Below, one piece after another: positions 1 to 12,571 of a stretch of DNA of 64,000 bases (its first letter is position 1; each line of letters starts with the position of its first letter). The stretch is from IMG/VR virus record IMGVR_UViG_3300045136_000892. One strand, written 5' to 3'. Below the pieces are notes generated by a model, which was not told where the DNA came from, did not search any database, and saw only the letters and a program-made list of their open reading frames with translations. Both the position numbers and the translations under genes were made by a program. This DNA is from a virus.

Positions 1-439
1 CGAGTAGCGCTTCTTTCTCGCGCAAATAGGCCTTGGCAAAAGCCTTATCGTGCTCCACGATGGACCCCGTGTTGTCGATCAGGTCGGCCAGCTTGATCGT
101 AGCGCCGTCCGGCGACGATCGGGCCAGATGTTCCCTATCCAGCCGCTTCCTCACCTCGCGGCTCCCATCCTCAAGCCGGGACACATCGGTCACCTCGATC
201 ACGAGCAGAGTCACCCTTTCGCCGAAGACGTCCTGAAGCTCGGCCGGCGTCACTTCTGTGTCCTCCAGCACGTCGTGCAGAGCGGCGGCAGCGATCACGG
301 CAGGGTAACTGATGTACTCGGCAACGATGGAGGCGACGTTCCGGCAGTGGTTGGCATACGGCTCGCCGGTGTATTTCCGCTTCTGCTGCCGATGGGCACA
401 CTTGGCGAAGCCGAGGGCCAGAGTCGGCAGGTCTGTCAT
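1..439 (-). CDS. HD-domain RelA/SpoT-type hydrolase (small alarmone hydrolase/Mesh1-like), runs off the left edge
   Basis: Not in the ORF track. Manual translation from ATG 439 (ATGA overlap with the rtcB stop): MTDLPTLALGFAKCAHRQQKRKYTGEPYANHC...AAALHDVLEDT...IKLADLIDN. Contains the AHxxQxRK, PY, HDxxED and KLAD motifs. Confidence 0.85.
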   Translation of the reverse strand, partial: MTDLPTLALGFAKCAHRQQKRKYTGEPYANHCRNVASIVAEYISYPAVIAAAALHDVLEDTEVTPAELQDVFGERVTLLVIEVTDVSRLEDGSREVRKRLDREHLARSSPDGATIKLADLIDNTGSIVEHDKAFAKAYLREKEALL

Positions 440-1677
440 CCCTTCACGCATAGCACCTGCTTCAGCTCATAAGCGATTTCCACCAGATCCTGCTGCGCCG
501 CCATGACCGCATCGATCGGCTTGTAGGCCGCCGGGCTCTCGTCCAGGACCCCTTCGTCCTTTCGGCACTCGACACCAGCAGTCGCCTTTGCGTGGTCTTC
601 GAGGCTGACGCGTTTGCTGGCCTCGCCCCGGCTCATCACCCGTCCGGCGCCGTGCGAGCAGCTGCAGAATGATTCCTGGTTGCCCTTGCCCCGCACGATG
701 AACGACCGGGCACCCATCGAGCCGGGGATGATCCCCAGATCGCCTTGGCGGGCACGGACGGCCCCCTTGCGGGTGAGCCAGACGTTCTTGCCATAGTGCT
801 GCTCGCGGGCCACGTAGTTGTGGTGGCAGTTCACCGCAACCTCGTCCGGGCGGCCGACCCGGCCGGGGAAGTGCCGCTCCAGCACCCTGAGCACCGCCCG
901 CATCATCACCTCGCGGTTCGCCCGGGCGAAGTCCTGCGCCCAGGTCAGGGCCTCGACGTAGTCGTCGAAAAGGTCTGACCCTTCCGGAATGTAGGCCAGG
1001 TCGGCGTCCGGCAGGTTGACGAACCAGCGGCGCATCTCCGCCTTGGCCCGCTCGATGAAGTAAATGCCGAACTTGTTCCCGATGCCCCGACTGCCGGAGT
1101 GGAGCATCACCCAGATAGCCCCGTCGGTGTCGAGGCACAGCTCGATGAAGTGGTTTCCGGTGCCGAGCGTGCCGAGGTGGTGCGGAGCGCGTGTTGCGGA
1201 CCGGGCCAGGTCGGGGTGCTTGGCGACGATGGCTTCGAGGCGTTCCTGAAGCGACGGCCCGAAGGCATCACTCTTGAACGCCCACGCGGATTCGTCCGGC
1301 AGATCGCCCCAAGCCCCACGATCGCTCGCCCCGCCGTTGTCGGTGCGACCGTGCGGCACCGCCGCCTCGATGTCGGAGCGGATCTCGAACAGGTTGTCGG
1401 GCAGGTCCTCAGCCCGAAGTCCGGTCCGAACGGCCATCATGCCGCAACCGATATCCACGCCCACAGCCGCCGGAATGATCGCCCCGACTGTGGGGATGAC
1501 CGAGCCGACGGTGGCCCCCATGCCCCAGTGGACGTCAGGCATGACCGCGACATGGTGATGGATGAAGGGCATCCGGGCGACGTTGCGGAGCTGGTCGACG
1601 GCTTTCTGGTCGAGAGGTACGCCTTCGGTCCAGCCGTAGATCGGAACGGCTTCCTTGCCGAGGAACTGCCTACTCAT
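436..1677 (-). CDS. rtcB: RtcB RNA 3'-phosphate/5'-OH ligase
   Basis: Motifs MPDVH, GVDIGCG, GTLGTGNHFIE, HSGSRG, HHN, GSMG, HGAGR, DESPAAYK. Start placed at ATG 1677, which overlaps the upstream stop. Confidence 0.96.
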   Translation of the reverse strand: MSRQFLGKEAVPIYGWTEGVPLDQKAVDQLRNVARMPFIHHHVAVMPDVHWGMGATVGSVIPTVGAIIPAAVGVDIGCGMMAVRTGLRAEDLPDNLFEIRSDIEAAVPHGRTDNGGASDRGAWGDLPDESAWAFKSDAFGPSLQERLEAIVAKHPDLARSATRAPHHLGTLGTGNHFIELCLDTDGAIWVMLHSGSRGIGNKFGIYFIERAKAEMRRWFVNLPDADLAYIPEGSDLFDDYVEALTWAQDFARANREVMMRAVLRVLERHFPGRVGRPDEVAVNCHHNYVAREQHYGKNVWLTRKGAVRARQGDLGIIPGSMGARSFIVRGKGNQESFCSCSHGAGRVMSRGEASKRVSLEDHAKATAGVECRKDEGVLDESPAAYKPIDAVMAAQQDLVEIAYELKQVLCVKG

Positions 1678-2968
1678 TGGCAGATTCAAACTTCACGATG
1701 TAGTCGAGGACCTTGTTCGACCAGCCGTCGATGTGGACCCACTGGCCGTAGCCGACGCCATTCTTGTTGCTCGCGACGTTGATCAGGTAGCCCTTCATCT
1801 GCGGTACCGGGTCGTGGCTCTGCTCGTCGGTGATGACGATCAGCCGATCCCGAGCCGGCAGCGAGCGGACCGCCTTACCCAGTTCCGTCCCGCCGTGCGG
1901 CTGAGCACCAGTGATCGCATCCCGAAGGGCAAACCCACGCCGTCCCGGCACCTCGACCAGGCTGTTGGAGAAGGTGAAGACCCGCAGGTCGGAAAACATC
2001 TCCCGGCCGATCATCGCCAGCGAGCAGGCCACATCCATCCGGTTCAGCTCGGACTTGGAGGACAGCGCGGAGTCCATCGATCCCGACACGTCCACCAGGA
2101 TGATCGTCTTGCCGCCCAGCTTCTCGCGGCCCGCGAAGCACTCGAAGAACTTGGCCTCCAGCTCAGGCTCGAACTGGGGGTTGTGCCGCGCCGAGGCGAT
2201 GAAGTTGATCGGTAGGAGTCGACCGGCCTTCACGTCGCGCAGGCCTTCGCGGATCGCCTGGTCCTCCACGCCCGCCTTCGTCATATTGCGGACGTTGCGG
2301 AGCATGGCGAGTCCGCCAAGCTTGCCCTCGGAGAGTAGACGAGACCACGAGGCCTTCTTGTCACCACCCTTCGACAGCTCGACCTCCCAGGTATCCGGAG
2401 TAGCCAGCTCGCCTTTGACGAGCTTGCGCCAAAGCTCGGCCTGTTCGAGATTGGCCGGCTTGGGGCGGGTGATCCGCAGGGCGTCGCGCAGTTTGACCGC
2501 CTTCTGACCTCCGTTGTACTTGGCTAGCTGGTACTCGTCGAACTTGCGGAAGGAGTCGCCCAGGCCGCGCTTGACCTGCTTGGCCAGCGGTTCGTCCTTG
2601 TTAGCCTTCCAATAGATTGACAGGAACTCGGTGATATCGTCCGGGCGGAGGATGACGCGGGGAAAGAGCCCCTTGGCCTGCGCACGGCCTTCCTTGGTCC
2701 GCATCAGCTCACGGGCGAGCAGGAGCGGGACGTGGCGGAGGCGCATGTCCTCCTTCGCCTGGACGGCGACGCGGGCGACATCCTCGGCAGGCACGAGCTT
2801 CACCAGCTCGGCGATCCGCTGGCCGATGGTCTGGCCGTCCTCGTAGAACTCCGACTCCCAGAGCAGGCAGGACATGACGGAGCGTTCGAGTTGAGCGAGC
2901 GCGTTGATACGGGCAGCCGGAGCGCCTTCGTGGGTGAACTCCTTGCGGATTCGGTTCAGGGTAGCCAT
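1670..2968 (-). CDS. rsr: Ro60/TROVE-domain RNA-binding protein with C-terminal vWA domain
   Basis: N-terminal THEGA, FDEYQLAKY, TWEVELS, AMLRN; vWA MIDAS DVSGSM, GGT and ITDEQ. Lies between rtcB and the Y RNAs. Confidence 0.93.
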   Translation of the reverse strand: MATLNRIRKEFTHEGAPAARINALAQLERSVMSCLLWESEFYEDGQTIGQRIAELVKLVPAEDVARVAVQAKEDMRLRHVPLLLARELMRTKEGRAQAKGLFPRVILRPDDITEFLSIYWKANKDEPLAKQVKRGLGDSFRKFDEYQLAKYNGGQKAVKLRDALRITRPKPANLEQAELWRKLVKGELATPDTWEVELSKGGDKKASWSRLLSEGKLGGLAMLRNVRNMTKAGVEDQAIREGLRDVKAGRLLPINFIASARHNPQFEPELEAKFFECFAGREKLGGKTIILVDVSGSMDSALSSKSELNRMDVACSLAMIGREMFSDLRVFTFSNSLVEVPGRRGFALRDAITGAQPHGGTELGKAVRSLPARDRLIVITDEQSHDPVPQMKGYLINVASNKNGVGYGQWVHIDGWSNKVLDYIVKFESANE

Positions 2969-2989
2969 GACACACCTACTTTCAATTGC

Positions 2990-3116
2990 GGGCGGGGAAG
3001 ATTCGGAGAGGGACGAAACTGAGCTACTGAACCTTGCGGCCCAGGCGGGGATCGAACCCGCGACCTCCGGCGAACCGGCGCTCTATCCAAAGTATCCCTG
3101 TCCTGCACCACCGCCC
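2990..3116 (-). ncRNA. Y RNA unit 4 (closest to rsr); tRNA-like module opened in the D-loop
   Basis: Terminal stem GGGCGGUGGUGCAGGACAGGGAUACUU...UCCCUCUCCGAAUCUUCCCCGCCC. Inside: GAGC, CCGG-UUCG-CCGG, AGGUC, T-arm GCGGG-UUCGAUC-CCCGC, acceptor stem closed by GCAA, UA-GCUC. Confidence 0.85.
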
Positions 3117-3128
3117 TGTTGCGGAAAC

Positions 3129-3258
3129 CGTGCGGGGAAGAAACGACAAAGGTACAAAGCGTCCTAACCATTAGACGACGGCCCCGAAGGACCGGCGGGA
3201 TTCGAACCCGCATCTCTCTCGTGGAAAGAGAAGTAACCCTTGCCTGCACCACCGCACG
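3129..3258 (-). ncRNA. Y RNA unit 3, YrlA-like; permuted tRNA with a UCC anticodon loop
   Basis: Same terminal scaffold. CUC-UUUCCAC-GAGAG, T-arm GCGGG-UUCGAAU-CCCGC, acceptor CGGUCC-UUCG-GGGCCG, D-arm GUCU-AAUGGUUA-GGAC. Confidence 0.88.
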
Positions 3259-3269
3259 ATGGTTCAAGA

Positions 3270-3403
3270 GGAGGGGGAAGAGACGATAAAGGCACGTACG
3301 TGCTCTACCAGCTGAGCTACCGGCAGGTCGATCTGCCGGACGGGACTCGAACCCGCGACCACGCGATTACAAGTCGAAGTAACCCTTATCTGCACCACCC
3401 TCC
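3270..3403 (-). ncRNA. Y RNA unit 2, YrlA-like; permuted tRNA with a UGU anticodon loop
   Basis: Same scaffold. CGA-CUUGUAA-UCGCG, UGGUC, T-arm GCGGG-UUCGAGU-CCCGU, acceptor CCGGCAG-AUCGAC-CUGCCGG, D-arm GCUC-AGCUGGUA-GAGC. Confidence 0.88.
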
Positions 3404-3412
3404 AAAACTTAA

Positions 3413-3474
3413 GAGCCGGGAAGATCGTCGAAGGTTCGCTTTCCAATAAGTAGCCCTCGACTGCACCACGGCCC
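3413..3474 (-). ncRNA. Y RNA unit 1; minimal scaffold with no tRNA module
   Basis: GCCGUGGUGCAGUCGAGGGCUACUU-short loop-CCUUCGACGAUCUUCCCGGC. Shares the GUGGUGCAG, AGGGNUACUU and UCUUCCC motifs with the other three units. Confidence 0.75.
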
Positions 3475-3484
3475 GATGCAAATC

Positions 3485-3513
3485 ACCCTAGTGCAGGTTG
3501 CACGCAAGCGCAA
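3485..3513 (-). promoter_or_regulatory. Putative sigma70 promoter of the Y RNA-rsr-rtcB operon, with a palindrome in the spacer
   Basis: Minus strand TTGCGC-17 nt-TAGGGT; spacer contains GTGCA-ACC-TGCAC (3491-3503). Confidence 0.5.
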
Positions 3514-3625
3514 GCATTATTTTAATCGTCATTCAACCTCTTTGATTCCCGGCTATTGCGGCCTCGCGGGGGCTTGTTAAAATGGGCAATCTCGCGGCTG
3601 ATTCCCGCTACCTGACGAGGTCGCC

Positions 3626-4066
3626 ATGGCCCGCAAGAAGACGGCAGCCCCGAAGCACGTCGAGCCCGAGGAAGAGGGCCCGGAAGGCGAGGAGGGAGGC
3701 GGCCAGGAAGGGCACGGCATCATCTCGAAGGCGGAGGCAATCCGCCGAATGCTGGCCGAGGGTATCGAGAATCCCTCTGTGGCTTCGGCTGAGATCAGGA
3801 CCCGATTCGGCATCGACGTAACGCCGCAGCATTTCAGCGCGACCAAGAGCCAGATGAAGAGCCGAGAGGCCGCCAAGAAGGGCAAGCCAGGCCGGAAACC
3901 GAAGGCAGCCCCTAGCCAAGCCGTCGAGGGCTACCTGGCTCCGCCGCCGAAGCCATCAACGGACGGCGAGCAACCTGACCTGCTGGCGGCCATCGAAGCG
4001 ATGAAGCCGCTGGTGGAGGCGCTGGGTAAGGAGAAGGCCCATCGCATCGTCGATCTGCTGGGGTGA
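3626..4066 (+). CDS. Hypothetical basic protein, possibly DNA-binding
   Basis: RBS GAGG; Lys-rich; SKAEAIRRML helix and GKPGRKPK AT-hook-like segment; divergent from the Y RNA operon. Confidence 0.65.
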   Translation: MARKKTAAPKHVEPEEEGPEGEEGGGQEGHGIISKAEAIRRMLAEGIENPSVASAEIRTRFGIDVTPQHFSATKSQMKSREAAKKGKPGRKPKAAPSQAVEGYLAPPPKPSTDGEQPDLLAAIEAMKPLVEALGKEKAHRIVDLLG

Positions 4067-4159
4067 GCGACGATACAATCTGTGGAAGAGAACATCTGAC
4101 GGCTGATCCGACCGTCATCCTCAGGCTACTCGCAGCTAGGCCGCGGCCGGAGTCTATCG

Positions 4160-4717
4160 ATGCCAGAAGCACCACACGTACCAACCCTGACCGACCTCGC
4201 GCTCCTCCCTCGGTGGGCGAAGGTTCTGTTCCTTTCGAGGTGTGCCGCCAGGGTCATCCCTCTCATCCGTACTCAATGGCCCAGTTTGTCGGCCGGGGAC
4301 TTGATGGTCATCGGGATGGCTGGGGCGAACGCGGATGCGTCGGCGCGGCTCGGACGAGAGGTTCACGTTGGGGCGGACCCGCTACCACGGTTGATGGAAC
4401 TTATCGAGAGTGCCGAGCAGCAGGACAATATGGCTGGCTATGGCTTGGCGGTATGCGCTACAGCAGCTGGGCTGGCACAGGCCGAATCCGCCGAAAAGGC
4501 CACCAACCTTGCTGGTGCAGCACTTGAGCACATGATTCAGTCTTATGCTGTCAGCGGGCTAAACGAGGGCGCCGTTGTCGGGTCTGTATGGCTCGATTAC
4601 AAGGCCCTCCGGGACGCCGCACAAGCGGGCAGTTGGAACAACGAAACCCGGATGACCGACGGCATCCTCGGCGAGCTTTGGCCGCATGGCACCCCTCCGG
4701 GCTGGCCCACCGAATAA
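4160..4717 (+). CDS. Hypothetical protein
   Basis: 185-aa ORF with GGAG RBS and protein-like composition. Confidence 0.55.
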   Translation: MPEAPHVPTLTDLALLPRWAKVLFLSRCAARVIPLIRTQWPSLSAGDLMVIGMAGANADASARLGREVHVGADPLPRLMELIESAEQQDNMAGYGLAVCATAAGLAQAESAEKATNLAGAALEHMIQSYAVSGLNEGAVVGSVWLDYKALRDAAQAGSWNNETRMTDGILGELWPHGTPPGWPTE

Positions 4718-4790
4718 AGCTAAAATCGACCTGGTGTACATCGCGTACGTTTCGCTGGTCATGAGCCTGCGAACGGCGTATCCTCGCCGC

Positions 4791-5426
4791 ATGAAACGCC
4801 TTACCCTCATCCTCCTCATCCTCGCGGTCTGGCCGTTCCCGACCGTCGCCGCCGATTTCGCGGCCTGGGTCATTGGCGTCTCCGACGGCGACACGCTGAC
4901 TGTCCTGACCGCCGAGAAGCGGCAGGTCAAGGTTCGGCTGCACGGCATCGACGCACCGGAGACGGGGCAGGACTTTGGCACGCGCGCGAAGCAGGCGGCT
5001 TCGGAGCTGGCCTTCGGCAAGCAGGTAACCGTCCGGGAGGTGGACAGGGACCGCTATGGGCGCACCGTGGCCGAGGTAATCCTGCCGGATGGCCGTTCGC
5101 TCAATCGCGAGATGGTGCGCGGCGGGATGGCTTGGTGGCACAGGACCTATGCGCCGGCCGACCGCGAGCTGGCCTCGCTGGAAGCCGAGGCTAAGGCCAC
5201 GAAGCGCGGCCTGTGGGCCCAGCCCGGGGCCATCCCGCCGTGGGAATGGAGGAGTAGCAAGGGCGACCCCGTCACGGCGGAGGTCGTGGGGAACCGCCGG
5301 AGCATGATCTACCACGCACTGAACTGCCGGGGCGCAACCGCAATCAGCGAGAAGAACCGGGTGGCGTTCAAGACTGCGGCCGAGGCCGAGGCTGCGGGCT
5401 ACCGGAAGGCGAGGGATTGCAAATAG
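4791..5426 (+). CDS. Secreted thermonuclease (SNase-like) with C-terminal Ada-like metal-binding domain
   Basis: Signal peptide; DGDT, VRLHGIDAPE, DRYGR, LNREMVRGG, GLWA; C-terminal GNRRSMIYHALNC...AEAAGYRKARDC. Confidence 0.9.
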   Translation: MKRLTLILLILAVWPFPTVAADFAAWVIGVSDGDTLTVLTAEKRQVKVRLHGIDAPETGQDFGTRAKQAASELAFGKQVTVREVDRDRYGRTVAEVILPDGRSLNREMVRGGMAWWHRTYAPADRELASLEAEAKATKRGLWAQPGAIPPWEWRSSKGDPVTAEVVGNRRSMIYHALNCRGATAISEKNRVAFKTAAEAEAAGYRKARDCK

Positions 5427-5557
5427 CCGCCTGCTCGCTGGCGTTGCTGGTCGCCCCGCTCCGGCTCAGAATAGGTTGCCAATTTCCATGCGCAACTATT
5501 GCCTTGCGCGTTCCCGGGCCTACAATTCCTGTGGACATCAGTTCACAGGAGGCCGCC

Positions 5558-5824
5558 ATGAAGCCACGCCATGCGAACGTCCTCAAGGATATGGGCTGCA
5601 CCGTTGAGCTCGAAGCTTTCCGTCGCGTGCTGGCGGAGGTGAAGGCCGAATTGTTCCCGGACATGACCGACGAGGAGCTCTGCTACACCCGCGATCAGGC
5701 GTCCGACTACTGCGCGGAGGTCAAGAAGCGGGTCGGTGCCCCCAAGCTCACCCGAGTCTTCATCCTCCGGTCGCTGGTCGGGCTCAGGAAGCAGCGGAAG
5801 CGAGCGGCCGGGGCTCGGGCTTGA
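5558..5824 (+). CDS. Hypothetical protein
   Basis: AGGAGG RBS before ATG 5558; 88 aa. Confidence 0.6.
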   Translation: MKPRHANVLKDMGCTVELEAFRRVLAEVKAELFPDMTDEELCYTRDQASDYCAEVKKRVGAPKLTRVFILRSLVGLRKQRKRAAGARA

Positions 5825-5892
5825 CCGCCATTATGCACCAACCTCACCACCCGCCCGGCTGAATTCCCCGCCCCGCCTGCTACCCTGCCCGC

Positions 5893-6306
5893 ATGGCCGA
5901 TCCGCACGTCATCACCGCCCTCGTGGAGAAGTACAGCCGTACTCTCGGCAGGCTCAGGGACTGCGAGCGGGAGGCGGAGACGCTGCGGGCGGACCTTTCC
6001 CACCTGGAGGCCGCAATCCGGCTGTTTCGGGCCGACTATGATTTCACGGTAATCCTCCCGCGCCGCCGGTACACCCCGCAGGCTAGCCGGACCCTGATCC
6101 GCCGGGCGCTTGACGTGCTGCGGGATGCCGATGAGCCGCTGACTAGCCGAGGGGTGGCGCTGGCCCTGACCGAGGGAGAGCCGGAGGAACTGGCCCTGCG
6201 GAAGCTGGCGAACAACCTGACCGGACGGCTCCGCAGGCAGCAGAAGGCAGGCGTGGTGCGGGCGCTGGAGGGCAGCGGGGCGGTCAGGTGGGAGTTGGTG
6301 CGTTGA
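5893..6306 (+). CDS. Coiled-coil plus winged-HTH passenger protein
   Basis: N-terminal coiled coil; C-terminal DVLRDADEPLTSRGVA...GVVR...VRWEL wHTH-like pattern. Confidence 0.6.
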   Translation: MADPHVITALVEKYSRTLGRLRDCEREAETLRADLSHLEAAIRLFRADYDFTVILPRRRYTPQASRTLIRRALDVLRDADEPLTSRGVALALTEGEPEELALRKLANNLTGRLRRQQKAGVVRALEGSGAVRWELVR

Positions 6307-6514
6307 CGGGGCGGGGTTGCGGCCAAGTGGGCGGGGGCGAGCGGCGGGGGAAGCTGTGCGCGTGGAAGTGGGTGGAGGGGGCGGGGAGAGGTATGGGGTG
6401 GGGAAGTGAAGGGCGGATATTTTTAAAATATTTCAACACCATAGCGAGTTTCTAGCGCTATGCTTAAAAATCAGTTGCTTAACATTCCGAAGACGACTAC
6501 TTTATCCTTAGGCG

Positions 6515-6604
6515 TGCCCGTGATCGGACTCGAACCAACATACCCGCGTGAGCTAAGGTGCCAGGATGACAGCCTGGTGCGTCTACCAATTCCGCCACAC
6601 GGGC
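6515..6604 (-). tRNA. Atypical class II tRNA: Leu-type body with GUC (Asp) anticodon; CCA not encoded
   Basis: GCCCGUG acceptor/CACGGGC-A73; D-arm GGCGGAAUUGGUAGACGC; CCAGG-CU-GUC-AU-CCUGG; ~21-nt variable arm; GUUGG-UUCGAGU-CCGAU. Confidence 0.88.
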
Positions 6605-6707
6605 ACACCTAAGGATAAGTGCGTCCACACCGTAAAGCCGGGCATGGACGCGGTAGTCATCTAACTACGGAGGGGGCATATTCATGTTCCTTTTGTTGGT
6701 TGGACTC

Positions 6708-6753
6708 AGCAGCGGCCCGTTTGTTCATTGGTGATGAGGACGGGCCGTTTGCT
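6708..6753. other. Long hairpin (possible terminator or processing site) between the 134-aa ORF and the tRNA
   Basis: AGCAGCGGCCCGT...ACGGGCCGTTTGCT inverted repeat. Confidence 0.5.
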
Positions 6754-6763
6754 ATTCTGGGTG

Positions 6764-7168
6764 CTACACCAAAGACCAGATTTCGTCCTTGTAGCTAAAT
6801 ACGTCCTTTCGCTTCTGTAAGGCTCCTGAAACCACGTTTCCCGGCTTGGGTCCCGCGATAGCGATGCCCTGCTTCTCGGCAGCAAGCAGTATCTGCTTTG
6901 TGGCGCAGAAGTCGGCTTTCATAAGGTACAAGTACGCGATATTCTGGATTTGTTCTTCGACGGTTCGCGGTGTCGGGTTAGGCAGTCTGCCCTGCTCACC
7001 CCCTGCCGTTGCGCGCTGCGTGTAGAGCTTCACCAGTTCTTGCTCTTTGGATCGGCGCTCGTTGACGAGATGGCGGATTTCGCCCTGCTTTTTCTCGATC
7101 TGGGTGTCAATTCCGTGTATCTCGGCAATCAGTGCTTTTTCGGTGTCGGTGGAGGGGTCGGTAACCAT
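6764..7168 (-). CDS. Coiled-coil plus HARE/winged-HTH-like protein
   Basis: 134 aa; C-terminal KQILLAAEKQGIAIAGPKPGNVVSGALQKRKDVF...IWSL. Confidence 0.65.
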   Translation of the reverse strand: MVTDPSTDTEKALIAEIHGIDTQIEKKQGEIRHLVNERRSKEQELVKLYTQRATAGGEQGRLPNPTPRTVEEQIQNIAYLYLMKADFCATKQILLAAEKQGIAIAGPKPGNVVSGALQKRKDVFSYKDEIWSLV

Positions 7169-7200
7169 AACTCAAGGTGCTTATGTTGATAAGGTGCCTT

Positions 7201-7361: not shown

Positions 7362-7500
7362 GGGGCTTGATAACCCCTTGGTTAGCGGTTTTGTACAGCC
7401 GTGATTTGTACTCCTCGCTTACGGCGGGGAGGCGTGCGCGCATGTTCAGGCGCGAGCTAAAGGCGCACGCGACCTTCTAACCAAGGTTTATCAACTCCCC
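7362..7500 (+). ncRNA. Structured multibranch RNA or 5' leader
   Basis: Closing stem GGGGCTTGATAACCCCTTGGTTAG/CTAACCAAGGTTTATCAACTCCCC encloses three hairpins: GTACA/TGTAC, CTCCTCGC/GCGGGGAG, GCGTGCGC/GCGCACGC. Confidence 0.65.
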
Positions 7501-7519
7501 GTCACCAGTGGGGATTGTT

Positions 7520-7631: not shown

Positions 7632-8588
7632 TCAAGCCACCATCCACCTCTGGCTATACCCCTTCCACTGCCGCGACACAGGCGCAGCCAGGGCGGCGCC
7701 CACCAGCATCAGATACTGCTCGCCATTGCTCACCCGGCGGTTATCCTCGCGCCATGCCATCTCCGCGGCGTACAGGCCGAGATACGGCCCTGCAATGTGG
7801 TGATGCGTGCCGACCTCGGCCCGGCGCAGGCGGCTGAAATAGCTCTCTGCTTGATTGGTGCAGGCTCCGTTCTCGCTATAGGCCCATTTGTGGTTCACCC
7901 GCTTCGTCAGATATTTCGCGTGCAGCGCATCCCAAGCGGGCGCTTCATCGGCGTGGATCACCGAGCCAGCGGCCACATGCTTCTGCACCAGGGGCACGGC
8001 CTCATCCTCCGAGCGGAACACGAAGGGTAGCGTCCGGCCCTTGCGCTCGCGCATGACGACGACGACCTGGCGCTTGCCCGTTTGGTTTGCCGCCAGGCGG
8101 CGGTCCTTGCGGTCTTCCTTGCGGTTCTCCGGCTTCACATGCCCGCCGAAATAGCCGCCGTCCACCTCGACCTCCCCCGATAGCTGACACTCGGCACGCA
8201 TCGCCTCGCGGAGTTTGTGGGAGAGCACGAAGGCAGTCCGGTACTGGACGCCCAGGTCGCGGGATAGCTGCAGGGCGCTAATGCCCTTGGCCGCGTTCGT
8301 GAACAGGGCGATGGCCACCAGGATCTCGCGGATCGCCAGCTTGCGGGAGGCGAAGATCGTCCCCGAGGTCACGCTGAACTGGTGGCTGCATGCCTTGCAC
8401 TTCCAGAGCGCCCGCGTCGTGTAGGTGTAGAGGGCGGCGCAGCGGCAGCGGGGGCAGTAGGGCTTGCCGCCCGTATCGGCCCAGCGGATGGCCTGGAACG
8501 CCTCGGCGGCCTGCTCGTCCGTCATGGCCATGATCGCCCTCAGAGAGAGGGACCGGGCGGCGGAGGAGAGGAGGAAGTGCTGGGTCAT
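7632..8588 (-). CDS. IS1595-family DDE transposase
   Basis: Zn ribbon CPRC...CKAC, FSVTSGTIF, HTH, GEVEVDGGYFGG, IHADE, VNH, TNQAESYF, LYAAEMAWRE. Confidence 0.95.
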   Translation of the reverse strand: MTQHFLLSSAARSLSLRAIMAMTDEQAAEAFQAIRWADTGGKPYCPRCRCAALYTYTTRALWKCKACSHQFSVTSGTIFASRKLAIREILVAIALFTNAAKGISALQLSRDLGVQYRTAFVLSHKLREAMRAECQLSGEVEVDGGYFGGHVKPENRKEDRKDRRLAANQTGKRQVVVVMRERKGRTLPFVFRSEDEAVPLVQKHVAAGSVIHADEAPAWDALHAKYLTKRVNHKWAYSENGACTNQAESYFSRLRRAEVGTHHHIAGPYLGLYAAEMAWREDNRRVSNGEQYLMLVGAALAAPVSRQWKGYSQRWMVA

Positions 8589-8701: not shown

Positions 8702-8944
8702 ATGGAGAAGGACGAGAAACGGCAGGATTTGGAGGAGCGGCTGGGACGTTACCTCAAGGCGATGCTGAAAGCGGGCGGGCTCACCTACGAGGAACTGGCC
8801 GAAGGGCTGAAGGCCCACGGCTTCCCGGAGGAGACCAAGGCATCCATCGCCAGCAAGCTGGCCCGAGGATCTTTCTCGGCAGCGTTCCTGGTGGCGGCGC
8901 TGCGGGTGGCGAAGCGGGAGGGGATCAGGTTGGAGGATGTGTAG
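8702..8944 (+). CDS. DUF6471-like HTH regulator, divergent from the transposase
   Basis: LKAMLKAGGLTYEELAEGL...ETKASIASKLARGSFSAAFL; GTTGTC(A/G)TTTAT repeats in the intergenic region. Confidence 0.8.
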   Translation: MEKDEKRQDLEERLGRYLKAMLKAGGLTYEELAEGLKAHGFPEETKASIASKLARGSFSAAFLVAALRVAKREGIRLEDV

Positions 8945-9019: not shown

Positions 9020-9208
9020 ATGAATGAGCGCGACATGTTGATTAGCATATTCTATGCTATCTGCGGACTAGCAGAGAAGCTGACCGGCGAGCAAATGGTC
9101 GTAACTATGACCAGCGAATCCGGCCAGCGTTTCTCTATGCATGGGCAGGGCGTGACTTGGGAACGTACTTCTCGGGAGGCGACTGAAGACCCGCCCTGTC
9201 AGTCGTAG
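9020..9208 (+). CDS. Small hypothetical protein
   Basis: 62-aa ORF overlapping the 3' end of the convergent ORF. Confidence 0.35.
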   Translation: MNERDMLISIFYAICGLAEKLTGEQMVVTMTSESGQRFSMHGQGVTWERTSREATEDPPCQS

Positions 9209-9506
9209 CCAAAGTGGACCAGGCTGATTGCAACTCGTCCTTCGCGGTGTGGACGTTCTTAAGTGCCTGATGAATCTGATCCGCAGTCGGCCAACGGTTT
9301 GCGTCTGGGCTTGGCCGCGAATCCGAGCGAATCATAACAGCTTCGGCTGGCATTATGACGCTGCAATTGCTGAATGAGAATCGTAGCGGCGATTCAAACA
9401 ACATCATCGCCACACCCCGAATCATGCCGATCATTTCGTCGCAGCGGGCGGTAGCTTCTTCGTACTTTACTCTGGCATCCAGATAGCGTCTTACAGGGTC
9501 GGTCAT
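9135..9506 (-). CDS. Hypothetical protein
   Basis: 123 aa with AGGAG RBS. Confidence 0.6.
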   Translation of the reverse strand: MTDPVRRYLDARVKYEEATARCDEMIGMIRGVAMMLFESPLRFSFSNCSVIMPAEAVMIRSDSRPSPDANRWPTADQIHQALKNVHTAKDELQSAWSTLATTDRAGLQSPPEKYVPKSRPAHA

Positions 9507-9727: not shown

Positions 9728-12571
9728 TTAGCTTTCCGTCCGCACGCAATCCCCTGTCACGAACTCCCCCGCGTCCTTTACGCACGGAGGAAGCCCCGGC
9801 CCGACGATGGGCTTCATTGAAGCCTCGCGGTCGGCCAGCTCGCCGTTCAGCTTCAGCAGGAATGCCAGCGGATCGTCCTTCGCCCTCATGCCGTAGGCGG
9901 CACGCACGGCAGCGTCCAGCGCGTCCTGGGCATCCCGCAGCGGGTTCTTGCCCGGCGTCTCCAGCGTGCGGTACAGCTCACGCAGGCTCCAGTTATTCTC
10001 GGCCATGACCTTGCGGCGCAACTGCCGCAGGGCAACGGCGGCCTCGGCCACATTCTTCGCCTGCGGCAGCGTCGGCTTCTGCGGCCAAGGGAAGGTGTCG
10101 AACACCGTGTCGCTCGTGTAACGGAAGTCGCCCTTGAGCGTGGAGCAGCGGGCGACGAACCACGCCCAGTGGATGCCCGATTGCAGGATGCCGAACGAGT
10201 AGTCGTCGGGGAGGGTGAAGAGCTGCAAAGCGTCGTTCGGATGGATGTCTGAAGCGATGAACTCGAAGATGGGGCGCTTCGTCACGCGGGCGCAGGCGAT
10301 GTAGCGGGGTAGCCCGGCCAGGCGTTCCAGCATCTCCGGGCGTCCACGCCAATATTTCCACCAGCGTTGGTAGTGGCTCTGGCGCGGCCCGTTGGGCTTG
10401 CCCGTCTCCTCCCGTTCCTTGTCGGCGTTCGCCTTCATCGTCGGCAGGACATGCGTTTCCACATGCCGGAAGGCCAGCCCATGCCGCTTCGCCGCCAGAA
10501 TGTCGGGGCAGTGGTTCAGGTCAATGGCGTAGCGTGAGGGCTCCCCCGTGGATAGAAGGTCATCCCCGGTGAGATAGGGATGAACGACCGGCTTTGCTGC
10601 CGCGTCCTTCATCATTTCCTGGGCCTCTGCCGGACTCAACAGGAATCCCTCGTGACCGTGCGTCTGCCCCTGGTAGCAGGCCCCGGAGTCCATGTTCGCC
10701 CGCAGGCGCTGCGCCCCCGTCACGTCAAATCCAGCCGAGAGGGCTGGGCCAATCTCATCTACCTCCACAGCCTCCCATGGGCTATGCCGATCATCCCCGA
10801 GCTGGGTGAACAGCTTTTTCTTGCCCGGGGCATCGCCCTTAACCCAGTTGGCGATTGAGACGTGCACCACCGCGTCTCCTGACCAGACCTGGGATGAGAC
10901 CGCCTCAGTGATCGTGCCGCCGTTGCCGACGATGTAATCCAGGCCGCCCTCCCGGCTGTAGTTCTGGCGGATGGTATTCGTGCCGACCAGCCCGGCATGG
11001 CCCCCGGCTGGCAGCTCGTCGTGGGCCTTGCGGAACCAGTACACGCAGTAATCCGCACGCCCCGGCACATCCGGGTAGGCCTCCCGCAGCCGGTTCAGGT
11101 AGGCCGGGCCGTATTCCTGCTGCATCTTGTTCTTGGACTGGAAGGGCGGGTTGCCCACGATGGCGTCCGCCTCGGGCCACTCGCAGAACAGGGCGTCGTC
11201 GGCTTTGATGTTGTCGTCCAGGTTGTCCAGAGGCAGGGCCGCGTCGAACTCGATGGGCAGGTCCAACTGCTCCGCGTCGATCCACGCATGGCTCTCGTCG
11301 ATCGCCAGTTCCTTGGCGATCATCAGCGTGACCTTCGCCAGCTCCACGGCGAACTCTTCCTTGTCGATGCCGAAGAACTGCTTGGTACTGACCAGGGAGC
11401 GTGTGCCAACGGCGGCTTGCGCCCGCCTGCCGAACTCGGCATGGATCTTTGCCATGAGGCTGAGTTCCAGCCGTTTCAGCTCCCGGAAGGCGACATAGAG
11501 GAAATTCCCACTGCCGCAGGCTGGGTCGAGGACCCGGAAGCCCCGCAGTTCTTCCAGCAGGGCGCGGAGGTCCTTTAGCGTCTTGGCCCCCTCGATACGC
11601 TCACGCCAGGGGCGGACGATGGTCGGCAGCACGACCTTCTGGATGTCCGCCTCGGAGGTGAAATGCGCCCCGTAGGCATGTCGCCGCTCCTTGCCCATGC
11701 TGCTCTGGAAGAGCGTGCCGAAGATGGGCGGCTGAACCTTGCTCCAGTTCTCCTCGGCGGCCTTCAGCAGCAGGTCGATCTCCTCCGGCACCAGCTCCAG
11801 CGGGTTGACCGTCTGGAAGATGCCGCCGTTGAAATAGCGCACGCCCTTGAAGCGCCCGCCCTTGGCCGGGGCCTGCGCGTTCATCTGCCGAAACAGCCCG
11901 CCGATTAGGTCGTAGGTGCTTTCGCCCCGCTTGCAATCATCCAGCAACTCGCTGAACAGCCCGCGCGGCAGCAGTTCCGCATCCTCGGAGAACATCGCCA
12001 CCACGCATTGCAGGGCGAACCGCTGGGCCTGCTCCCGGTCCTCGCCCCGCGCCACCAGCGAGTTGAACACACCCGCCACGTTCGCAGCCGCTGCCCGCGT
12101 GACGTCCACGCGGTTGTTGCCGAACTGCGGCTTCTTCTCGACGGGGAAGAGGAAGTTGAAGGCCGTGTACCGATGGGGCAACTCTTCGAGGGCCACCGTG
12201 TCCACAGGATCGTTGAGCTGGGAGTCGAAGTCGTAGATCCAGAATTCGTCGAAGTTGCAGAGCACCACATACTTGGGGCGCTGGGGGACGAGCTGGAGCC
12301 AGTATTCAAACGCCTGGGTATAGTGCTTCTGGAGCTTCTCGCCCCGTTTCTTCATCTCCATGAGCAGGCGGGGCCGCCAGAGGAGGTCGGCGAACTTCGT
12401 GCTCTTGGCTCCCTTCACCCGGAATTCCAGCGTGGCTCCGGCTTCCTTGTAGCCGCCATGCCCGAACGCCTTGAACAGGCGGTCGCAGAAGACCTGAGCC
12501 TCGCCCTTCTCGTCGCCTTTCAGCGTGCGGGCGTAGTCGATAAACTCGCGGATCGGCTCGGCGGGATTCAT
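9728..12571 (-). CDS. Type IIL (MmeI-like) fused restriction endonuclease-N6A methyltransferase
   Basis: N-terminal ADLL...EMK nuclease motif; GAHFTS, DPACGSGNF, GNPPF; C-terminal target-recognition region FGILQSGIHWAW...RYTSDTVFDTFPWP. Confidence 0.93.
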   Translation of the reverse strand: MNPAEPIREFIDYARTLKGDEKGEAQVFCDRLFKAFGHGGYKEAGATLEFRVKGAKSTKFADLLWRPRLLMEMKKRGEKLQKHYTQAFEYWLQLVPQRPKYVVLCNFDEFWIYDFDSQLNDPVDTVALEELPHRYTAFNFLFPVEKKPQFGNNRVDVTRAAAANVAGVFNSLVARGEDREQAQRFALQCVVAMFSEDAELLPRGLFSELLDDCKRGESTYDLIGGLFRQMNAQAPAKGGRFKGVRYFNGGIFQTVNPLELVPEEIDLLLKAAEENWSKVQPPIFGTLFQSSMGKERRHAYGAHFTSEADIQKVVLPTIVRPWRERIEGAKTLKDLRALLEELRGFRVLDPACGSGNFLYVAFRELKRLELSLMAKIHAEFGRRAQAAVGTRSLVSTKQFFGIDKEEFAVELAKVTLMIAKELAIDESHAWIDAEQLDLPIEFDAALPLDNLDDNIKADDALFCEWPEADAIVGNPPFQSKNKMQQEYGPAYLNRLREAYPDVPGRADYCVYWFRKAHDELPAGGHAGLVGTNTIRQNYSREGGLDYIVGNGGTITEAVSSQVWSGDAVVHVSIANWVKGDAPGKKKLFTQLGDDRHSPWEAVEVDEIGPALSAGFDVTGAQRLRANMDSGACYQGQTHGHEGFLLSPAEAQEMMKDAAAKPVVHPYLTGDDLLSTGEPSRYAIDLNHCPDILAAKRHGLAFRHVETHVLPTMKANADKEREETGKPNGPRQSHYQRWWKYWRGRPEMLERLAGLPRYIACARVTKRPIFEFIASDIHPNDALQLFTLPDDYSFGILQSGIHWAWFVARCSTLKGDFRYTSDTVFDTFPWPQKPTLPQAKNVAEAAVALRQLRRKVMAENNWSLRELYRTLETPGKNPLRDAQDALDAAVRAAYGMRAKDDPLAFLLKLNGELADREASMKPIVGPGLPPCVKDAGEFVTGDCVRTES

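Follow-up and report, generated by a model that had tools for sequence, protein, structure and literature searches.

Why would a prophage carry a tRNA gene whose body is that of a leucine tRNA and whose anticodon, GUC, belongs to aspartate? The gene in question occupies positions 6515–6604 on the minus strand of a 64,000-nt stretch of DNA (hereafter the window) from the IMG/VR record IMGVR_UViG_3300045136_000892, a prophage (viral) record of 143 kb with a G+C content of about 67%. Judged by its sequence, the RNA gene is probably genuine and looks selected rather than decayed. It lies downstream of a small protein-coding gene, here called ORF134 (open reading frame of 134 codons), in a compact cassette next to a transposase gene. 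We propose, with a probability of about 0.36, that the RNA is a conditional miscoder that would insert leucine at aspartate codons and that comes from a mobile-element cassette with a mis-wired tRNA caged by a helix of its own leader and trailer.

A leucine-type tRNA with an aspartate anticodon

ARAGORN calls a single tRNA in the window, a tRNA-Asp(GTC) of 91 nt at 6514–6604 on the minus strand, and the Rfam tRNA model RF00005 spans 6515–6604 on the same strand end to end with 53.7 bits (gathering score 29), which gives a gene of 90 nt with G1 at 6604 and A73 at 6515. All four stems pair. The acceptor stem has 7 bp (GCCCGUG/CACGGGC), the D-stem 3 bp with AAUUGGUAGA as its loop, and the anticodon stem 5 bp (CCAGG/CCUGG). 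The T-stem of 5 bp, two of them G-U pairs, carries the loop UUCGAGU; A73 follows. The 7-nt anticodon loop, CU-GUC-AU, has U33 and A37, and the variable region of 21 nt, with a stem of 4 bp, makes this a class II tRNA. Its geometry is the standard one of a 7-bp acceptor stem with a 5-bp T-stem, and the tertiary nucleotides are canonical. The CCA end is not encoded; CGC follows directly after A73.

The body is that of a leucine tRNA. The segment U8–C25 is invariant relative to real tRNA-Leu of Variovorax, Neisseria and Azospirillum, and it also matches the Leu genes of three bacterial genomes that carry other tRNAs of the same mismatched type (Leu-type/GUC tRNAs, described below). A15 is combined with U48, as in tRNA-Leu, and A14 and the position of G18G19 are likewise those of a Leu-type D-arm. 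In a BLAST search of phages and plasmids, the gene matched tRNA-Leu genes only, with no tRNA-Tyr among the matches. Class II arm, Leu D-arm and A73 are thus all present, and only a leucine anticodon (NAG or YAA) is missing. An earlier note, made from the letters of the window, had described a Leu-type D-arm, a long variable arm, A73, the anticodon GUC and four paired stems, all of which are borne out by ARAGORN, Rfam and the alignment with tRNA-Leu.

The ends of the RNA are unusual as well. The 14 nt before G1 (the 5' leader strand, 6605–6618, minus strand) form an unbroken helix with A73 and the 13 nt that follow it (the 3' trailer strand, 6502–6514, which begins with CGCC right after A73), so that the acceptor helix is prolonged to 21 bp, and imperfect pairing continues from there; the corresponding inverted repeat is I1 (21 nt, 95%). 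The 141-nt region around the tRNA folds at −66.7 kcal/mol, with z = −5.1 against shuffled sequences. This 14-bp leader–trailer helix, which we call the cage, is kept in L142, the locus with the closest known relative of the cassette, where 13 of 15 positions are paired and three compensatory double changes separate it from the window; the CGCC of the trailer is conserved there too. None of the 24 other scorable Leu-type/GUC tRNAs has an extension of the cage type. Because the cage helix is conserved and CCA is not encoded, we argue that the primary transcript of the window tRNA is not directly chargeable.

Whether GUC is a private accident of this copy can be judged from its relatives. The earlier note had named as fatal to its idea homologues with leucine anticodons, in which case GUC would be private decay or a sequencing error. 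The same 12-kb region, tRNA included, recurs unchanged in Logan SRR30649429, which was assembled independently, and there are at least 25 other Leu-type/GUC tRNAs, which speaks against private mutation and sequencing error alike. The only close homologue, in L142, carries UUA, which reads a stop codon and is not a leucine anticodon. A strict pattern that combined the D-loop with the T-arm of the window tRNA gave no match in 185,579 species genomes, and exact DNA patterns found no close homologues in viral contigs. When the Leu-type D-loop was required to be followed, at the proper distance, by YUGUCA, the same 185,579 genomes yielded 36 loci, of which ARAGORN called 25 as class II tRNA-Asp(GTC) of 83–97 nt; about six more are tRNA-like with a damaged acceptor stem or a position at a contig end, and four look like chance. 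Automated annotation was misleading here, as the Leu-type/GUC tRNAs are labelled tRNA-Asp. Three viral-contig matches to the GUC pattern (L001–L003) were rejected as family members: in these AT-rich contigs (in L001 at 3218–3270), the 5' half of an unrelated tRNA-Leu-like gene (acceptor, D-arm, GACUGUCAAAAUC) runs into an ORF, so that the gene may be interrupted or contain an intron, and ARAGORN makes no call.

The hosts of the Leu-type/GUC tRNAs belong to at least ten phyla and include Alpha- and Gammaproteobacteria, Acidobacteriota, Gemmatimonadota, Actinomycetota, Bacteroidota, Planctomycetota, Chloroflexota, Patescibacteria and Campylobacterota, among others. In an alignment of 25 sequences, 93.4% of the stem cells are paired (62.8% after shuffling) and 188 cells are changed on both sides (63 in shuffles), and every slid control collapses. 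Most members have the anticodon loop YUGUCAA; position 73 is A in 20 of the 26 rows of an anchor-based table in which a few rows are mis-registered, and only four members encode CCA. In three host genomes, the GUC tRNA stands alongside a normal Leu set and differs from every resident Leu tRNA in its anticodon, variable and T-arms, and in two genomes of Acidobacteriota it is the only sequence with this D-arm. Because of these arm differences and the sole D-arm matches, the GUC tRNAs are not point mutants of resident genes, and a simple anticodon mutant of a host tRNA-Leu was rejected on the three-arm difference.

The ORF134 cassette and its mobile surroundings

ORF134 (6764–7168, minus strand) lies upstream of the tRNA on the same strand and encodes 134 amino acids, with a long N-terminal helix (residues 5–53) and a C-terminal winged helix. 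No Pfam or PADLOC family was found for it. Its AlphaFold model (pLDDT 87) shows a 50-residue helix followed by a winged-helix domain, for which the structural matches are generic winged helices, among them HARE-HTH-like, viral DNA-binding and Z-alpha-type folds, none of them significant. ORF134 is predicted to be a nucleic-acid-binding protein with a coiled coil and a winged helix. The family is extremely small: a profile search of 1.84 billion representatives together with a word-indexed search of 5.8 billion proteins returned only four relatives, and the family was not found in the 401 Planctomycetota genomes searched.

Three of these four relatives (and thus four of the five family genes, ORF134 included) are followed at a distance of 120–200 nt by a same-strand tRNA with a mismatch between body and anticodon or with an irregular loop. 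In L142, the protein is 62% identical to ORF134 and the tRNA is a Leu-type class II tRNA with the anticodon UUA, an ochre reader (Rfam, 61.6 bits). L143, a phage with a terminase gene and a DUF6471 gene, encodes a protein with 41–43% identity and a class I tRNA body with the anticodon CAG and C33 (Rfam, 50.7 bits). In L144, the protein is 28–35% identical, and the tRNA-like gene has an anticodon loop of 9 nt and is recognised by Rfam only as a tmRNA-like acceptor/T domain. The remaining family member lies on a 1-kb contig with another ORF after it. Since GUC, UUA and CAG or irregular loops occur across these relatives, the constant of the cassette is the disagreement between body and anticodon, not one anticodon.

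L142 is homologous over the whole module, with DNA similarity across window positions 7169–6508, and its tRNA agrees with that of the window in the acceptor stem, in A73 and in the CGCC of the trailer. The anticodon arms differ in two compensated stem pairs and in the loop, which is CU-UUA-AA in L142 as compared with CU-GUC-AU in the window; the T-arms differ by two transitions, by which a G-C and a C-G pair of L142 are G-U and U-G in the window. L142 also keeps two hairpins between ORF134 and the tRNA, a distal one just past the ORF134 stop codon (CGGCCCG/CGGGCCG, 6713–6747, minus strand, read from the sequence) and a proximal one with the 7-bp stem GCGUCCA/UGGACGC (6621–6651, minus strand), which was read from the sequence and found conserved by pairwise alignment. 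The motif UAAGCAACUGAUUU (6468–6481, minus strand), which follows the tRNA at a distance of about 35 nt, is shared as well and marks the end of the homology. Beyond it, a hairpin (CAUAGCG/CGCUAUG, 6440–6462, minus strand) followed by an A/U-rich stretch is a possible terminator of the cassette, for which a consensus terminator scan gave no call.

Read along the minus strand from high to low coordinates, the region holds an MmeI-like restriction-modification gene (9728–12571), the gene of a small DUF6471 protein (8702–8944, plus strand), an IS1595-family transposase gene with a zinc ribbon and a DDE domain upstream of the cassette (7632–8588, minus strand; PF12762, 1.7e-43; PF12760, 9e-14), ORF134, the two hairpins, the tRNA, the motif, the terminator-like hairpin and a C-rich tract. 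The tract, 120 nt at 6300–6420 just downstream of the cassette, has a plus strand very rich in G, so that the tRNA strand is rich in C and poor in G, and it resembles a Rho-utilisation site. Next come ORF137 (5893–6306, plus strand) and a staphylococcal-type nuclease gene. The DUF6471 gene accompanies both the IS1595 clade of the window transposase (window 8702–8944, L062 and others) and the ORF134-type cassette of the phage locus L143, which it flanks (4743–4994).

Is the cassette part of a transposon? The tRNA lies about 1 kb from the IS1595 transposase gene, and no inverted repeats or target duplication enclosing it were found in the window. A second inverted repeat, I2 (6616–6637 / 9240–9261), was rejected as a pair of insertion sequence ends, as its left arm is half of the hairpin conserved in L142 and a target duplication is absent. 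The leader motif CGGUGUGGACG...CUUA has its second copy at 9240–9261 (plus strand; 22 nt, 82%), in opposite orientation and inside an ORF at 9135–9506, which may be a cassette remnant or chance. Among 80 loci related to the window's transposase clade, the nearest, L062, has a transposase that is 86% identical, the same MmeI-like and DUF6471 neighbours and a homologue of ORF137; the slot of ORF134 and the tRNA is filled by two unrelated ORFs. Because L062 holds different ORFs in the same slot, the ORF134–tRNA cassette is swappable cargo beside the insertion sequence, not demonstrably inside it. In L062 (5771–6560), the slot holds a 157-amino-acid ORF that is antitoxin-like by eye (Panacea/DUF4065-like) and overlaps an ORF for a small hydrophobic or membrane protein of 113 amino acids; read by eye, the pair seems to be toxin–antitoxin-like.

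The statement of the earlier note that the tRNA lies inside a transposon is not supported for the window copy, around which no enclosing repeats or duplication were found and whose nearest related locus has other cargo; it holds for a relative, L031. In this metagenome-assembled genome of Bryobacterales, a Leu-type/GUC tRNA (5805–5890) lies 12 nt inside the right end of a 3.2-kb IS1595-type element (2743–5936), which is bounded by 35-nt terminal inverted repeats (2743–2777 / 5902–5936, 97% complementary) and an 8-bp target duplication, TAACGCAA. The cargo of this element consists of the transposase, three unannotated ORFs and the tRNA, and a PD-(D/E)XK nuclease gene lies just outside. No protein neighbour is common to all Leu-type/GUC loci; the only recurrent one is the IS1595 transposase, a neighbour of the tRNA in the window, in L031 and in L042, and thus in 3 of 26 loci. 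Other neighbours are IrrE/XRE pairs, Mrr/HARE-HTH nucleases, a SMODS-associated NUDIX protein and a phage integrase, which was seen in L021, the related loci L030 and L041 being unannotated. Eight of the 80 loci of the transposase clade (L072–L074, L077, L078, L085, L088 and L095) carry other unusual tRNAs near the transposase. At 330–400 nt from it, the anticodon ACU occurs both on a class II body of 90 nt (with G73 and CCA) and on a class I body whose T-loop is aberrant; the others are a class I body with GCU and a tRNA-Leu(CAA) of 96 nt.

Further features of the record deserve mention. An RNA-repair operon at 2–3363 (minus strand) encodes an HD-domain protein (2–451), RtcB (436–1689) and Rsr/TROVE (1670–2968), with three tandem YrlA-like Y RNAs directly upstream of Rsr at 3299–3363, 3161–3214 and 3001–3069 (43, 27 and 20 bits, none of which reaches the gathering score of Rfam). 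A weak match to sRNA-Xcc1 (7423–7511, plus strand; 30 bits, E = 0.056, below gathering) lies between the transposase gene and ORF134. The only ordinary tRNA of the whole 143-kb record, a tRNA-Gly(UCC) with encoded CCA (C1:70456–70531), lies outside the window and may be an integration site; ARAGORN also called a Leu(CAG) of 71 nt and an Arg(TCG) of 93 nt, both of which look spurious.

Possible functions of the caged tRNA

In a bacterial leucine tRNA, as known from E. coli, leucyl-tRNA synthetase (LeuRS) reads identity from A73 and from D-arm and tertiary elements, while anticodon and variable arm play no part. LeuRS would thus be indifferent to GUC and would charge the mature window tRNA. On this basis, we propose the following hypothetical sequence of events for a conditional miscoder, in which (i) ORF134 and the tRNA would be co-transcribed as one unit; (ii) the tRNA would be made as an inert, caged precursor, with its acceptor end sealed by leader and trailer and with no encoded CCA; (iii) the cage would be removed, for example by RNase III or by RNase P together with 3' trimming, whereupon CCA would be added; (iv) LeuRS would charge the freed tRNA; and (v) the leucylated tRNA would insert leucine at GAC and GAU codons. 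The outcome would be a toxin-like, conditional miscoding RNA of the prophage that may serve addiction or abortive infection, with ORF134 as a putative regulator or binding partner of the tRNA; in the sister cassette L142, UAA would be read as leucine. That mistranslating tRNAs exist in nature is known from the allo-tRNAs and tRNAProX, some of which are active in E. coli (PMC5389517, PMC11415595). More generally, one might see here a mobile cassette in which a mis-wired tRNA with leucine identity and an aspartate or stop anticodon acts as a toxin, is caged, is controlled or bound by ORF134 and causes killing or arrest by programmed mistranslation, the stand-alone Leu-type/GUC tRNAs being simpler versions of it; this generalisation is possible, and we would rather doubt it than rely on it.

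Several observations weigh against the miscoder. A promoter scan found no sigma-70-like promoter on the minus strand, and ORF134 itself does not avoid aspartate codons (six Asp in 134 residues). The cage helix and the missing CCA suggest that the 3' end may never become free in the stable form, and tyrosyl-tRNA synthetase (TyrRS), a competitor which the earlier note had not considered, or aspartyl-tRNA synthetase (AspRS) could compete for the tRNA. The count of 36 loci comes from a scan pattern with a fixed YUGUCA and does not rank GUC against other mismatched anticodons. Among the four cassette tRNAs, the anticodon loop is non-canonical in two (C33 in one, 9 nt in the other), and about a quarter of the wider GUC set has a broken acceptor stem with intact D-, anticodon, variable and T-arms; irregular loops and broken acceptors fit a non-decoding role better.

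One such role, which we regard as nearly as likely as miscoding, is that of a decoy or bait. The caged and uncharged tRNA, possibly with an ORF134 dimer on its long stem, would form a ribonucleoprotein that displays an aspartate-type loop on a body rejected by AspRS. It would titrate or sense anticodon nucleases, other tRNA-targeting toxins or loop-modifying enzymes of the host or of rival elements, and would thereby complement the Ro60/Y-RNA/RtcB operon; we consider this quite possible, though short of an even chance. A decoy would account for a cage that is kept by covariation and for the lack of an encoded CCA, and the design of a tRNA on a long stem has its parallel in the Y RNAs that lie 3 kb away beside Rsr and RtcB. 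Variation of the anticodon among the cassette relatives (GUC, UUA, CAG) is expected if different enzymes are targeted, and both the irregular loops of two cassette relatives and the damaged acceptors of the GUC family are in line with an RNA that is never charged. Z-alpha-type winged helices, which bind duplex nucleic acid, are among the structural neighbours of ORF134, all of them weak and below significance. On the other hand, no nuclease or toxin partner is conserved beside the GUC tRNAs, no Asp-specific anticodon nuclease was identified at the window locus, and the Rfam YrlA signal is absent from the window tRNA. A73 and the exact Leu D-arm would be unneeded in a decoy, yet most members retain both.

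Considerably less probable is a structural role, in which the tRNA-like fold would provide the ORF134 mRNA with a 3'-terminal processing signal for RNase P or RNase III or with a stabilising element, comparable to MALAT1–mascRNA, while the anticodon drifts. The position 120–200 nt after the ORF is constant in four loci in spite of different class I and class II tRNA types, hairpins are conserved between ORF134 and the tRNA, and the loops in L143 and L144 are irregular, all of which such an element would explain. It would leave unexplained the at least 25 stand-alone Leu-type/GUC tRNAs without an ORF134 neighbour, the retention of U33, A37 and a 7-nt loop in the window and in L142, and the fact that GUC turns up again on different class II scaffolds (PMC5389517).

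A translating tRNA of another identity appears improbable. Charging by TyrRS would place tyrosine at aspartate codons, and charging by AspRS would make the RNA an extra, odd tRNA-Asp. The class II body, A73, G34 and U35 are shared with tRNA-Tyr, a single base separates GUC, and likewise UUA, from the tyrosine anticodon GUA, and the loop YUGUCAA of most family members is that of E. coli tRNA-Tyr with A36 replaced by C. C36 and the D-arm, which is of the Leu and not of the Tyr type, do not fit, and no BLAST match was a tRNA-Tyr. For AspRS, the anticodon is the main determinant, with G73 and C38 required beyond GUC. G34, U35, C36 and G10 of its identity set (G34 U35 C36, C38, G73, G10) are present in the window tRNA, but positions 38 and 73 are U and A instead of the preferred C38 and G73, and the long variable region of 21 nt, compared with the 4–5 nt of a class I body, is foreign to tRNA-Asp.

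Hardly more can be said for a non-functional relic, either a captured tRNA-Leu decaying on a mobile island or the remnant of an attachment site, to which the missing CCA, the lack of a clear promoter, the two T-stem G-U pairs where L142 has G-C and C-G and the extreme rarity of the cassette would be suited, since all stems are intact, compensatory changes preserve cage and cloverleaf between two copies with partner proteins only 62% identical, at least three base changes separate GUC from the UUA of L142 while stem changes are compensated, and the Leu-type/GUC family shows covariation.

Comparison with known systems

To our knowledge, natural tRNAs in which identity is decoupled from the anticodon are known only in a few families, the allo-tRNAs and tRNAProX. 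A full-text literature search found no description of a Leu-type GUC tRNA with 7/5 geometry or of a protein–tRNA cassette of the kind seen here.

The closest parallel is provided by the allo-tRNAs and irregular tRNAs of soil bacteria, class II tRNAs with an acceptor/T geometry of 8/4 or 9/3 and mostly serine identity (G73), among which GUC is one of the three predominant anticodons; they occur near transposon-related genes and toxin–antitoxin systems, and some are active in translation while others are not (Mukai et al. 2017, PMC5389517). The window tRNA resembles them in its non-cognate anticodon on a class II body and in its mobile or toxin–antitoxin context (next to IS1595 in the window, and with the pair in the L062 slot as read from its sequence). 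It differs from them in that the 12-bp acceptor branch of the 8/4 or 9/3 type is replaced by a 7/5 arrangement with a Leu D-arm and A73, and in that it is caged by a leader–trailer helix and coupled to a dedicated winged-helix protein. The tRNAProX/ProRSx systems of Streptomyces and relatives comprise class I Pro-type tRNAs with a dedicated synthetase (reviewed in PMC11415595). They share with the window tRNA the combination of one identity with the anticodon of another amino acid, kept beside a normal set; in contrast, the window cassette has no synthetase, and its partner is a small winged-helix protein.

From canonical tRNA-Leu, with which it shares an identical D-arm, A15/U48, A73, a long variable arm and the 7/5 geometry, the window tRNA is set apart by the loop CU-GUC-AU in place of YU-NAG-G or YU-YAA-A, by a variable arm that is 6 nt longer than in three aligned real tRNA-Leu, and by its paired ends without CCA. 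YrlA Y RNAs (RF02553) likewise carry a tRNA-like module on top of a long stem formed by their 5' and 3' ends, and three YrlA-like RNAs lie 3 kb away on the same strand. However, YrlA is a permuted or partial tRNA mimic with a Ro-binding helix, whereas the window RNA is an unpermuted, full cloverleaf, and the YrlA covariance model gave no match at E ≤ 10 on 6400–6720. We therefore rejected the possibility that the RNA is a fourth Y RNA of the Rsr operon, the model match being absent and the topology unpermuted.

Set against these systems, three features are new: the presence of GUC on a Leu-type scaffold of standard geometry across many phyla, for the most part within or close to mobile DNA; a cassette of a protein and a tRNA with the mismatch as its one constant; and a covarying cage that seals the acceptor end. 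Together they make a compact system, with a cassette of about 750 bp, that bears on whether programmed mistranslation or decoy tRNAs serve mobile elements as weapons or as a means of regulation, and Leu-type/GUC tRNAs may serve as a chassis for orthogonal tRNAs.

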